A stretch of 64,000 bases of DNA from Octopus vulgaris. Taxonomy: Eukaryota. This document shows, in pieces, positions 22,619 through 27,115 of the stretch (within the stretch, counting starts at the first letter, position 1; each line of letters begins with the position of its first letter). The notes under the pieces are model-generated. The model was given only the letters and a program-made list of their open reading frames with translations, was not told where the DNA came from and searched no databases. The position numbers were made by a program, and so were the translations under genes. The stretch lies in NCBI GenBank assembly GCA_951406725.2, contig OX597822.1, positions 55,676,001 to 55,740,000 of the forward strand. Direction: 5' to 3'.

Positions 22619-22647
22619 GAGTGGCTGTGTGGTAAGTAGCTTCTTAC
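22619..22647 (+). mobile_element. SINE family B head (A box), split by insertions
   Basis: GAGTGGCTGTGTGGTAAGTAGCTT-CTTAC matches the 5' end of the intact copy at 59808-60231(-). Confidence 0.85.
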
Positions 22648-24695
22648 CAGACAGACGTGTTGTTTTTTGCTCCTGCAAATGTCACGTGTTTGAACGTGAA
22701 ATGTTGAACTTTTGACTCGGCGACAGGTAAGACGTTCTGTATTTTTAGAAGCATAGTGAAGTTTATTGCTTGCTTAATGTTATTTAGCAGTTAACGTTAT
22801 CTAGCATTAATATTTTTTTGCGGGTAATAGACTTCACTTTGCTTCAGTTATATTTCTCTGCCTGTTGTCGTGTCTAAGGTCTCACTCTTTAGTGAGAATT
22901 GTGCTTTTTGAGGAGGCGTAGCCCCTCCGCAAAAATTAATTTGTTTGCTTGTGTTTTCCACTGGATTTACCACGGAGTACCAAGGCTGAAAGGACCAATT
23001 GTGCTGCGACTGGAGTACCCTGTTTCGTTAGGATTACCAGAGTTGCAGAACTGTGTTGCCATTGACTGAACTGTCTTCCTTCGTTCTTTTCTCTGCTCTG
23101 TCTTTCTGTTCTTTCATTGTGTTTTTTATTGGACTTTTATTAGAACTTTGAACTTTTGATTGAACTCTTTTTCTCTTTTCATTTAAAATCATGGCAACGA
23201 AAGAAACCACTGCTTTGGAGTGGGAGGTTGTCCCGCCCAAGCAGTGGGTTGAAGGTCTTGAGAGGAGGACGGTGGTCCTACGAACCTATTCTAGGTCGCG
23301 TGGAGCCATCGCCCTCTTCGACAGGAATACTATAGAGAGAGAGTTGGGGGACCACCTGCCAACTATAAAGTTTATTTCTCGGGGGACTAAATTTGCAACG
23401 GTGTGGTTGCTGTTTGCTACCCCCGAGGAAGCTAGCAGATTTGCTAGCGAGCCCCTGGAGGGAGAGGAAATTTTGTTCCTCCCCTCGTATTGTGGCAGAA
23501 AGATAAAAAGAGCCTGGGTTTGTGGGCTGCCCCCGGGCACGGAAGCGGGATGGATCGAGGAGACCATCCGGCGAGGCCTGGGGGATAGCGGACCCAGGCT
23601 ACTGAGTGTAAAAATGGCTCCGCGGTCGCCTGGGAGGGGTCAAAGTTGCCTTTGACCCTGTGGAAACCGGTGGCCGTGGGAGAAATGAAATTCCCGGACT
23701 TCCTGAGAATGGCTGGGCACAGGTACCCGGTGATACTCGAGGGTCGCCCCCCAAGTGTCACCTGTGCCTGAAGCCCGGACATATCAGGAGGAATTGTCCC
23801 AGGGGCCGTGGTGGTGCCCCGGAGCAGAAAGGGGAAAAGGCGCCCGCCGCCCCCTCATTGGAGGGGGAGACGGTGGAAGTCGTGGAGGAGGTTGCCTCCA
23901 CGAAAAGAAAGAGACAGGCGAGCAACAATGGTTGCCCGCCAAAGAACGCTCAGGTGGCGGAGGGGGATAGCGATCCCCCGTGTCTGGTGACGGAGTCCCC
24001 TGGGTCAGCAGTCTCCCCCAAAAGAAGGAGGAGAAAAAGGAGAGGTCAGACGACTGACGTTTCTGTGTCGCCGACGGAGCCGCGGGTGGGATGTGTGCCA
24101 CCTGCGGACAAGGCTCCGCCAGTGGGAAGTGTGCCACTGACGGAGCAGTGTGAGGTCCCTTCCTGTGAAGAGGAGATGCTTCTCCTCCTTTACCACAAGG
24201 GAGAGGAGGTGAAAAGGTTTTTGAATGGCTTGGGTGACCGAGAACGCAAGGGCACGGTCGGCTCAAGGAGTCCGTTATGGCCTCCGCGGGTAGCTGCGGA
24301 AAAAGTAACGGAAGATATTTTGTCAAGGGTCGCAGAGACCTTTGAGAGGAAACATTTCACTTTTCTCTTTGCAGGCCCCGACTTGTCGCAGAGTTGTCTG
24401 CAGGCGGCAAGACAATTTGCTTCGGGAACCTGACGGGGAGAATTGTTGAACATTCTTGTAACATGTTGAAGAGGAGGTTTATTGCCTCCTCTAAAATATG
24501 TAATTTGAATCATTGTGAACATTTTGTGCATTAAATGTAATTATTGAACATTGTTTTAGAGAAGCGGAAGTCGGCGGGCGCTTTTGACTTCTCCCATCAC
24601 CATCTTCATCCACCACCACCATCATCCATTAATGTCCTTGTCCAGCCCGTAGCTACTACTCTGTGTGCTGCCCTAGTGGCAAATTATATAAAATA
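22648..24695 (+). mobile_element. ORF1-only Tx1-like retroelement, copy 1
   Basis: 540-nt 5' UTR, gag-like ORF1, conserved 3' UTR ending AATAAA. Flanked by a duplication of the SINE target. Confidence 0.85.
23191..24433 (+). pseudogene. Tx1/L1-type ORF1 protein (CCHC zinc knuckle), two 1-bp frameshifts (~23620, ~23750)
   Basis: MATKETTALEWEVVPP...LEGRPPKCHLCLKPGHIRRNC (CX2CX4HX4C). Homologous to ORF1 of the EN-bearing element at 54.3-55.6 kb. Confidence 0.8.
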
Positions 24696-24710
24696 AAGTA
24701 GCTTGCTAAC

Positions 24711-26959
24711 GCACATGCGCAATTAGTCAGCTGCTTCCTGTTCAGCCAGAGTGGACGCGAGTCAATCAGCTCTGTCCAATTAAAGAAAAAAGACCAAAAA
24801 CGGAAAGTTGTCGAGGTAAGTGATTTTGTTTATTGTGAGTTGGGCATAATTTATTGCGTGCCAATTATTATTTCAGTAGGTTGTGTCCAACCCTGAGACA
24901 ATTCCGCCTGCTCTCGGCGGCTGCCGTTTTTGTGTTCATTGAAAAAAAAAAAGAAAAAACAGTGCAGGGGCGTATCCTCAGAATTCAATACAGTTACTGT
25001 TAAAATTACCGTTGGCGGTAGCCAGTGCTGTGTTTGGGTTTGTTGAATTTATTCCCTTGTCAGAGTACTTCGCAAGAAAATTATAAAAATAAGCCACTAT
25101 TGGATTACCTTTCGGACCCATTTTTGTGGAGGTTGTGTTGCAGTTGCGGCGTTCCAGGTTCAACCCATGCCGGGAGTACCGCAAGGCCAGAATATTTTTG
25201 CTGTGTTTTTTTCTGTTTATTAACTTTCTTTTGAACTTCATTTAACTTCATTTAACCCCCCTTTTGTTTTTTTCTTTATTGCGACTTTCCGTTAATTTCT
25301 TCCCTTCTGTTGTGCTTTCTCCTTTTTGTTTTTTCAAAAATCTATCAAATTTTATTTGGACTTTTGAACTTTTTCTTCCTGCTTTTGAGTTTAATTTGAA
25401 TATATTTTTAAAAAAAACATGGCAATGAAAAATAACAAAATTTTGGAGTGGGAAATCATACCACCTAAAAAGTGGTTAAAAGACCGTGAAGATAGGATGG
25501 TGGTGTTGAGAACCTACTCCAAGGCACTTGACACCATCGCCCTGTTCGAAAAGACGGCAATTGAAAAGGAGTTGGAAGAGTATTTGCCAACAATTAAATT
25601 CATCTCCAGGGGTGTCAAATATGCAACGGTGTGGTTGCTATTTGACACCCCTGAAGAGGCTTGCAAATTTGCTAGCAAACCCTTGGAGGGTAAGGAAATC
25701 TTATTCCTGCCCACGTACAAAAAAAAGAAATTGATGAAAGCTTGGATCTGCGGACTGCCACCCGACATAGAACCCGAGTAGATAGAGGAGACTATCCGCC
25801 GGGGTCTGAGTGACAGCGAAACTAAGCTCCTCAATGTAAAAGTTCTTCCTGCGGCTGCTTGGGTTGGGTCAAAAGCAATTTTGACCCTGTGGACCCAATC
25901 AGCCAATCTGGTTCTTCCAGATTTTTTGAAAATGGCCGGGTGCAGGTACCCGGTGATGCTTGAGGGTCGCCCCCTAAGTGTCATCGGTGCTTGGAGTCCG
26001 GCCACATAAAGAAGAACTGTCCTCGGGAACAAAATAGGATCCCGGAACAGTTAAGTAAAACCCCTCTAGAAGAGGGAACGATAACGGCCGAAAAAACAGA
26101 GGACTCCTCAAACAGAGGCCGAAAGAGGAAGGTGAGCAACAATGGGTGCTCACCAAAGGATAATAGGGATGAGGAGAGGAAGGCGAATCTTCCAGCCACG
26201 GAGGAGACGCACCCTCCCTCAGTTGAAAAGGGAAAAAAAAAGAAAAAGAGGAAGAAAAACGGGACATTACCGGCTGTCAGTGTAGCACCGGAATGTCGCG
26301 GAACTACGTCGGTTGGGGTTGTGCCACCGACAAGAGAAGGAATACCGTTGGCGGAAACTGTGCCGCCAACGAAAGAACTGAATGTATTGGTCCTCTTCTA
26401 TAGAGGAGAAGAAATTGAAAAAGTGATGGAAGAGCACTACAAGGGAGCACCTTTAGCCTTCACACAGGGCCCCGAATGGCCTCCGCAGGTAGCTGTGGAG
26501 GCCGTGGCGTTCGACGTGACGCTAGGGCTAAAGGAGCTCAATGAAGATTATAACTTGGTCCCGGGCGACGCGAACTCGGAACTTGACTACGTTCTGAGGG
26601 AGGCGTGGTTGATGGTGGAGGGCGCGGGCACAAGCTATTTCGAGGACGATATGTATTATTAGTAATGGACTTAAGTCCAAAAATTGAAAAATTGTAAGAG
26701 GATTAATACCTCGTTTTGTATTAATAATGGACTGCTAAGTCCAAAAATTGGAAAAATTATAAGAGGTTTAATACCTCGTTTTGTGTTCATCTTTTTAAAA
26801 AGAACAATGTTTTAGAGAAGCAAAAGTCGGCGGGCGCTTTCTGTCTTCTCCCATCCTTATCATCTTTCTTTCATTATCATTCACCTCATTAATGTCCTCG
26901 TCCAGCCCGCAAAGCTAACTTAATCTGTGTACTGCCTTTATGGCAAATGTTTTGAAATA
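24711..26959 (+). mobile_element. ORF1-only Tx1-like retroelement, copy 2 (diverged subfamily)
   Basis: Begins GCACATGCGC right after target duplication 24696-24710. Ends AATAAA before target duplication 26960-26974. Confidence 0.85.
25419..26662 (+). pseudogene. Tx1/L1-type ORF1 protein, TGG>TAG stop at 25779 and frameshift near 25975
   Basis: MAMKNNKILEWEIIPP...KCHRCLESGHIKKNC...WPPQVA. Confidence 0.8.
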
Positions 26960-27115
26960 AAGTAGCTTGCTAACCAACCACATGGTTCCGGGTTCAGTCC
27001 CACCGCGTGGCATCTTGGGCAAGTGTCTTCTGCTATAGCCCCGGGCCGACCAATGCCTTGTGAGTGGATTTGGTAGACGGAAACTGAAAGAAGCCAGTCG
27101 TATATATGTATATAT
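26960..27115 (+). mobile_element. SINE family B, continuation (B box and body)
   Basis: AAGTAGCTTGCTAAC-CAACCACATGGTTCCGGGTTCAGTCCCA...TTGGGCAAGTGTC...GGAAACTGAAAGAAGCCAGTCG(TA)n. Confidence 0.9.

Follow-up and report, generated by a model that had tools for sequence, protein, structure and literature searches.

ORF1-only retroelements stacked at one base of a SINE head, and the L1-group LINE that probably inserts them, in an octopus genome

How do two retroelements that encode a single protein each come to lie head to tail at one base of a short interspersed element (SINE), and what machinery placed them there? The question is raised by a 64,000-nucleotide stretch of the Octopus vulgaris assembly GCA_951406725.2 (contig OX597822.1, positions 55,676,001 to 55,740,000, hereafter the window), in which the head of a SINE copy is interrupted by two units of 2,062 and 2,264 bp (elements 1 and 2, Table 1). 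Each unit has a 5′ untranslated region (UTR), one open reading frame of the ORF1 type, and a conserved 3′ UTR, or tail. Both are dead copies with broken ORF1s, and they were very probably inserted by a long interspersed element (LINE) of the L1 group, itself probably of the Tx1 clade, that shares their tail and their target. The ORF1-only elements are called passengers below and the LINE is called the helper; labels in L and C denote loci and contigs elsewhere in the genome.

Results

Two ORF1-only elements at one target

The three junctions of the window locus lie where the original prediction had placed them, and its description of the units as ORF1-only also held: tblastn finds no trace of ORF2 in either (best E 1.8), and both lack a poly(A) tail. 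Both ORF1s encode a CX2CX4HX4C knuckle, and in open copies at other loci the family A ORF1 found in element 1 is 414-415 aa long. Only one named protein is closely related to the ORF1s, from Octopus sinensis, with 61% identity across 68% of the query. Contigs from four sequencing runs under three organism labels (X1, X14, X16, X17) cover both elements, and none of these contigs bridges the locus. The first 250 bp of the element 1 5′ UTR match, at 98% identity, the beginning of a copy that has a B-type ORF1 (L122). The variant target at the 5′ junction, AAGTAGCTT-CTTAC, likely arrived with element 1, because it recurs ahead of the same type of 5′ end at L146, L176, L188 and L195. The body of the interrupted SINE shares 95% identity with the copy at 52.8 kb of the window and 91% with that at 60.2 kb. 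Both copies present the empty site as proposed, but neither contains the exact palindrome that had been quoted for them.

Insertion is specific to the SINE head across the genome

The host SINE is a high-copy interspersed repeat with a body of ~430 bp ending in AAAGAG repeats, and an exact 31-mer count gives at least 63,270 perfect empty sites. Its A-box-like and B-box-like motifs are so named by comparison with consensus boxes; no tRNA match was found with ARAGORN (window) or Rfam (60000-60300), and a tRNA origin of the head is putative, suggested by the box-like motifs. A first search with the 3′ UTR of element 1 yielded 1,110 candidates, of which 40 were scored and 30 fetched, and at the fetched loci all 32 tail matches continue into the target, with flanks that start GTAGC. 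A degenerate pattern for the shared tail has 1,124 exact matches in the genome (reversed control, 0), and 858 of these (76%) are followed directly by AAGWAGC without a mismatch; Tx1-type specificity has been recognized where more than 20% of flanks fall in one target (PMC4494074). Target-like sequence follows 57 of 58 A-type tails and, among the 216 B-type tails, all of the first 100, so the flanks, as had been anticipated, are mostly target and not random. Older families use the target variant AAGAAGCTTGCTTCC, two tails lie inverted within the near-palindromic target, and one insertion of 28 nt (L182) is accompanied by a 13-14-nt duplication. Only about 1-2% of the perfect sites are occupied.

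We also considered that the host SINE might itself carry a LINE tail and insert into its own copies. This candidate was rejected: the SINE ends ...AAACAAGTAAAAGAG, and none of 124 contexts ahead of the target was a SINE 3′ end (54 heads, 57 LINE tails and 13 others, several of these 13 being degenerate tails). Such self-insertion may hold for another SINE. Separately, a second tail type, ...CCCCTTGTGGGTAATAAA..., occurs with variants at 53900-53980 of the window and at L198:820-860, L095:2690-2720 and L186:4500-4530; these tails end related LINEs with no SINE target behind them, as would a sister system with another target or none.

The 15-mer is a target-site duplication

A repeated 15-mer at every junction could instead be the terminal repeat of the element itself, or the mark of a SINE-element-SINE composite amplified as a whole. 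To score this, 50 solo insertions were taken from 59 rows, leaving out eight arrays and the window row. Ten of the 50 are 5′-truncated copies of 51-1,651 bp at the same target, which keep 6-16 nt of it at their 5′ side, part of which may be microhomology. Locus-specific target variants stand on both sides of the insertions at L133, L105, L115 and L141, and at L183, a stack of two elements, each of the three junctions shows the rare variant GGTAAC. Because L133 and L105 repeat their locus variants on both sides, and L183 at three junctions, the 15-mer is a true target-site duplication. The 3′ copy tracks the variant of the host SINE (TAAC, TTAC, TTCC or GTTT).

The 5′ copy behaves differently in full-length elements, and this is what speaks for a terminal repeat: of the 22 full-length solo copies with TAAC at the 5′ side, eight have a TTA-type target at the 3′ side; a GTTT variant at the 3′ side is shared by the 5′ junction in 0 of 5 full-length copies; and 10 of 39 copies have a 1-nt indel at positions 9-10 of the 15-mer. 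Thus the second half of the 15-mer is often supplied by the full-length copy itself, in a version of its own. As a full explanation the terminal repeat is refuted by L133, L105, L182 and L183; where full-length 5′ junctions are concerned it survives, for their distal half. The same site is used by inverted copies and by copies truncated to many different lengths, and the tens of thousands of empty SINEs carry the sequence with no element attached. We consider this explanation, with its composite variant, very improbable. The objection that the 15-mer is simply the terminus, which had been raised in advance, does not hold, with the amendment that full-length 5′ ends carry in part their own 15-mer.

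Full-length RNAs likely begin within the upstream copy of the target or immediately ahead of it, and the 5′ junction would often show the donor's variant because of this start, the donor version winning at the joint. Among 103 junction strings, which are related copies and in some cases truncated, a motif RGAYG(T/C) resembling a downstream promoter element (DPE) lies at offsets of 28-29 in 14, 19-20 in 9 and 56-61 in 41; a transcription start within the target would fit the 28-29 group only. In the helper (L045, L082), ~29 nt inward from the 5′ end, there is a second, degenerate copy of the target, and a DPE-like motif follows this inner copy by 28 nt, as if 5′ modules had accreted.

The ORF1-only families form an old lineage under purifying selection

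The ORF1 motif of families A, B and C has 913 exact matches in the genome. In a midpoint-rooted tree of 34 N-terminal domains, made from stop-free frames of at least 165 residues and including two long-branch rows, the 27 A/B/C rows form one clade (support 100/100), which a branch of 1.29 separates from the helper ORF1s and from family D (1.5 kb). Among 12 representatives with 55-92% protein identity, the median ratio of nonsynonymous to synonymous substitution rates (dN/dS) is 0.20 (64 of 66 pairs with finite dS), and the three highest values (0.45-0.74), which come from closely similar copies within one subfamily, are what post-insertion decay would be expected to give. The search for intact copies that had been suggested found eight open ORF1-only copies among the 105 motifs in the fetched loci. 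In 79 of the 81 cases with a detectable tail (24 motifs have none), motif and tail are 1,146-1,719 bp apart, and unit length is constant across families that are 55-88% identical in protein. Of 34 loci picked for the ORF1 motif and by no other criterion, on contig C1 and a few others, none had an ORF2 behind its ORF1.

These data bear on the simplest alternative, in which ordinary LINE copies each lost ORF2 after insertion. Both window copies are indeed decayed, and internally deleted helpers occur (L045, L120, L196), but the absence of any ORF2 remnant, a private 3′ UTR of 140 nt in the passenger families, the constant unit length, the low dN/dS and the open copies refute it, and we give it hardly any credence. 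As judged from the tree, the substitution pattern and the loci without ORF2, the ORF1-only families are an old, separate clade under purifying selection rather than decayed LINE copies, and their loss of ORF2 is ancestral, not repeated copy by copy. The single non-autonomous family of the original prediction gave way to a radiation of many families, among which 5′ UTRs, ORF1 halves and tails have been swapped; element 1 is one such mosaic.

Family D (L034:7771-8997 on the minus strand, L189, L173, L049) is an ORF1-only element of 1.5 kb with a very short 5′ UTR, whose ORF1 groups with that of the helper (37% identity). It is probably a second, independent origin of the ORF1-only state at the same target. 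ORF1 proteins of the Tx1 clade contain RNA-binding domains and a CCHC knuckle. Pfam zf-CCHC scored above the cut-off for the helper ORF1 only, and the passengers' CX2CX4HX4C is visible in the sequence; Atlas look-alikes of the ORF1 were CCHC and ZCCHC3-type RNA-binding proteins (0.88-0.93).

A likely helper with the same tail and target

A full element with ORF1, ORF2 and the same tail and target had been predicted to exist, and one was found as a unit of 5,454 bp at the end of an array on contig C1. Its ORF2 contains the domains Exo_endo_phos, RVT_1 and zf-RVT, corresponding to an apurinic-endonuclease-type (APE) endonuclease, a reverse transcriptase and a C-terminal zinc domain, and its best match in the PDB is human L1 ORF2p (E 8.5e-67). 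Of eight copies examined, L082 retains both reading frames intact (467 and 1,133 aa), and in L083 ORF2 is open. This ORF2 type lies inside the unit at 13 of 60 C1 loci selected by their tail, some of them belonging to older subfamilies with 76-90% identity. The hallmarks of non-LTR (long terminal repeat) retrotransposition, 5′ truncation and target-site duplication, are present (L133, L140, L182). By its domains and matches the helper is identified as a non-LTR retrotransposon of the L1 group, and it probably belongs to the Tx1 clade; no named Tx1 sequence occurs among 23 helper homologues or their clusters.

Could a different autonomous LINE, unsampled and with an ORF1 of the A/B/C type, move the passengers now or have moved them in the past? 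What helper and passengers have in common, besides the target, is the last 27-44 nt (a TGCC-N5-GGCA hairpin and the AAATA end); their ORF1s are ~25% identical, and several diverged ORF2 types (57-93% identity) lie in or beside passenger loci. Set against this, none of the 34 loci picked by ORF1 had an ORF2 behind it, and the sole apparent case, an ORF2 ahead of an A-type tail at L186, belongs to a foreign LINE that is nested there and bears a tail of its own. Young copies of passengers and helpers are also of similar age (98% and 99% identity within families) and sit in common arrays. We regard such a LINE as improbable. L095, L155, L163, L186 and L198 were rejected as cases of ORF2 linked to passengers, being neighbouring or nested foreign LINEs, with L163 assigned from a distant 25% match only.

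The window itself contains a decayed related LINE at 54390-56424, with ORF1 remnants followed by an endonuclease frame (Exo_endo_phos E 4.6e-11) and cut after the endonuclease; its 5′ flank showed no SINE target.

Arrays of up to nine units and a stacking bias

As many as nine units occupy a single SINE, mixing A, B, C, D or helper elements and combining up to four families in one array, where random site choice would lead to chance reuse of a junction in at most about 3% (2 x 1,124 against 63,270). The complete set of 58 A-type tails, read by eye, is followed by an A unit in 17 cases, the 5′ end of another family in 27, SINE body in 13 and an off-target sequence in one. For the tail type of element 1, 27 of 40 cases thus lie on the 5′ junction of a different family, versus 2 of 100 for the B-type tail of element 2 (Fisher p 7e-17), and the bias is present behind both A- and C-type ORF1s. 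Because A tails mostly sit on the 5′ ends of other families, the order in the window, A before B, is typical.

Arrays might also arise mainly in single events, by a jump of the reverse transcriptase from the finished 5′ end of one RNA, where a target copy lies, to the tail of a second RNA, or by unequal crossing-over. The placement of 44 of 58 A-type tails on another element, the recognisable or apparently full 5′ ends of the partners (10 of 50 solos being truncated), near-identical neighbours in some arrays (distance 0.0005-0.001), alternating pairs on contig C5 and the template jumps described for R2 (PMC3414825) would all suit this account. Serial duplication, however, predicts the rare variant at all three junctions of L183, where serial insertion is shown, and the one rare variant at the two upstream junctions of L201, where it is suggested. 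L173 has a target copy before a truncated partner, up to four families are mixed, and array units are often closest to units on other contigs: 29 A units do not group by array, with 83 variants common across loci versus 9 private to an array. A predominance of single events is accordingly unlikely in our judgement. Serial insertion would be the main route of array growth, local duplication would account for some of it, and template jumping may add to both.

At C5:78744242-78758404 (L031-L033), near-identical A units alternate, either as a two-unit duplication or as an assembly effect.

An antisense motif in the tail tracks the target

Many tails contain a short motif antisense to the target. 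Among 71 distinct tails, those followed by a GTAGC target have GCTAC in 38 cases, GCTTC in 2 and neither in 17, and those followed by GAAGC have GCTAC in 0, GCTTC in 7 and neither in 6; one tail has a G target. The nominal p of 6e-7 for this association is overstated, the rows being related. The motif changes with the target both in passengers and in a helper lineage (L120), whose UTRs otherwise do not align, and single folds show the antisense stem in 5 of 6, mostly without a significant z. Its pairing partner could be read-through RNA or the top DNA strand. The motif is not required, because family B has a bulged match only and family D has none.

Proposed mechanism

In the mechanism that we favour, the helper ORF2 protein would bind the tail hairpin in trans, place one nick at GCTAC(TT)/ACC in the bottom strand and a second, some 13-16 nt further along, in the top strand, and copy the passenger RNA by target-primed reverse transcription. 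As the target would be left at both ends of the insertion, later copies could insert again at the junctions, and the SINE would serve as a renewable, low-cost landing pad. That passengers borrow the helper ORF2 in this way is suggested by the shared tail, the shared target and the common arrays. Each insertion would abolish the RNA polymerase III (Pol III) activity of its SINE.

Several observations weigh against this account. Of the 1,124 tails, 266 lack the exact target 7-mer; among the first 100 tails listed with their flanks and read by eye, the inexact ones are mostly mutated targets, and at least three look off-target. The model predicts neither the stacking bias of A-type tails nor the orientation bias of insertions, roughly 400:1. 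RNAalifold found no covariation in the tail hairpin across 20 tail-plus-target sequences and recovered only the 4-bp hairpin, which is invariant and imposed by the search pattern, the antisense stem being lost to misalignment; tail-plus-target folds are mostly no better than shuffles (z -0.5 to -2.3). The short common sequence and the low ORF1 identity permit a closer helper, possibly one now extinct or unseen, and the ORF2 check on ORF1-picked loci covered contig C1 and a few others.

A fuller scheme with three tiers can be offered as a tentative and rather doubtful extension. A LINE would target the SINE promoter, a radiation of ORF1-only families would ride on it, and the tail of element 1 would seek out the 5′ junctions of full-length elements already in place rather than empty SINEs. 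RNA-target pairing, through an antisense motif that changed together with the target in helper and passenger lineages, would help the choice of site and orientation, and the target would give part of the promoter of each copy.

Other features of the window

A third ORF1-only element and the start of a fourth lie near the end of the window (Table 1); no SINE head was found at the 5′ side of the third. Between 38138 and 51203 there are several near-identical copies, direct and inverted, of an element with frames of 717 and 411 aa, which by eye looks Penelope-like; its arms of 2,406 nt are 100% complementary, and an N gap lies at 38145-38244. A degenerate (TG/TA)n microsatellite of ~5 kb at 28.6-33.4 kb gives spurious long reading frames, and two frames at 9250-9624 and 11627-12007, nearly identical over their first 57 residues, form a local repeat.

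Table 1. Coordinates of the split SINE, its two ORF1-only elements and related copies in the window
Feature	Position	Strand	Remark
Host SINE head, 5′ part	22616..22633	+	matches 60227-60193
A-box-like TGGCTGTGTGG in SINE head	22622-22632	+	by comparison with consensus
5′ junction, 14-nt target copy	22634..22647	+	variant AAGTAGCTT-CTTAC
Element 1, 5′ UTR	22648..23190	+	mosaic
Element 1, ORF1 (family A)	23191..24433	+	frameshifts near 23622-23655 and near 23750
Element 1, CCHC knuckle	23756-23797	+	
Element 1, conserved 3′ UTR	24546..24695	+	AAATA end
Element 1, target-antisense motif	24650-24657	+	
Element 1, TGCC-N5-GGCA hairpin	24669-24681	+	
Middle junction, 15-nt target copy	24696..24710	+	AAGTAGCTTGCTAAC
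Element 2, 5′ UTR (family B)	24711..25418	+	
Element 2, ORF1	25419..26662	+	stop at 25779-81; frameshifts near 25970 and 26230
Element 2, CCHC knuckle	25979-26020	+	
Element 2, conserved 3′ UTR	26802..26959	+	
Element 2, antisense motif	26911-26921	+	imperfect
Element 2, hairpin	26933-26945	+	
3′ junction, 15-nt target copy	26960..26974	+	AAGTAGCTTGCTAAC; the SINE's own
Remaining host SINE	26975..27115	+	to (TA)n stretch
B-box-like GGTTCAGTCCC in SINE body	26991-27001	+	by comparison with consensus
SINE copy with empty target	52651..52806	-	start of head missing; reads ...GCTTACG
SINE copy with empty target	60060..60227	-	variant GTTTAC; reads GGTAAGTAGCTTGTTTACC; body to about 59810
Third ORF1-only element	62017..63711	+	diverged A-like ORF1 from 62260; same tail
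Target 15-mer, then 5′ end of fourth element	63712..64000	+	leaves the window

Discussion

A genome-wide, target-specific LINE system with ORF1-only passengers is well supported by these results. The comparison with known systems draws on parts of the cited papers. Tx1 families target DNA transposons, LTR elements, small nuclear RNA genes, 5S genes, satellites and microsatellites, with named examples in Xenopus Tx1 (in Tx1D), crocodilian Tx1-Mar, Tx1-8_Crp, Tx1-4_AMi, Tx1-9_AMi, Keno and Kibi/Koshi, and SINEU-3 forms tandem insertions around a target duplication (PMC4494074). The octopus system resembles these in its APE-type LINE with a fixed site in another multicopy element, in a non-autonomous partner with the same target, and in tandem copies that sandwich the duplication as in SINEU-3. 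It differs from the examples given there in that the target is a SINE head next to the A box, and in that its passengers encode ORF1 and outnumber the helper, with specificity near 100% in young families. Dada DNA transposons likewise insert within or beside a Pol III A box, but in real tRNA genes (PMC3706591).

ORF1-only LINEs include HAL1 (L1), HeT-A (Jockey) and Ag-Sponge (CR1), and the portions of these sources at hand list none of Tx1 type or targeted to a sequence (PMC5786205, PMC5753468). Like them, the octopus passengers consist of a 5′ UTR, ORF1 and a 3′ tail without ORF2 and form families of their own; unlike them, they swap 5′ UTR, ORF1 and tail modules and probably include a second origin in family D. 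We assume an origin independent of mammalian HAL1, because the host is likely an octopus. Drosophila HeT-A, TART and TAHRE build mixed head-to-tail telomeric arrays of an ORF1-only element and an autonomous helper (PMC5537684), and here too arrays are mixed and the ORF1-only element is the more abundant; whereas HeT-A adds to chromosome ends and serves its host, the octopus insertions are internal, with a duplication and with no host function indicated. R2 and the R2/R1 SIDEs are site-specific non-autonomous derivatives, with 14-bp duplications at the R1 site, but SIDEs encode no protein and target rDNA (PMC3414825). A 2026 repeat annotation of Octopus vulgaris describes recently active L1-Tx1 families, and the words 'target' and 'ORF1' do not occur in its main text (PMC13282606). 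In the literature outside subscription journals, Repbase, Dfam and supplements, search listings showed no LINE that both targets a SINE head and has ORF1-only passengers. Each ingredient is known separately (Tx1 in transposons; HeT-A and HAL1; tandem SINEU-3), and their combination appears to be new. Two of its features stay unexplained, the stacking bias and the target-tracking antisense motif.

An effect of the insertions on SINE activity is unlikely, because so few of the perfect sites are hit. The precise 15-nt target of an APE endonuclease is of interest for targeted-insertion tools. The same system bears on whether an RNA tail aids an APE endonuclease in its choice of site and orientation, and on how head-to-tail LINE arrays grow away from telomeres. 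As a young natural system with open copies, it may help explain why ORF1 stays selected in elements that would borrow ORF2. Finally, it would widen the safe-harbour view of target-specific LINEs, the harbour in this case being a retroposon promoter that renews itself.

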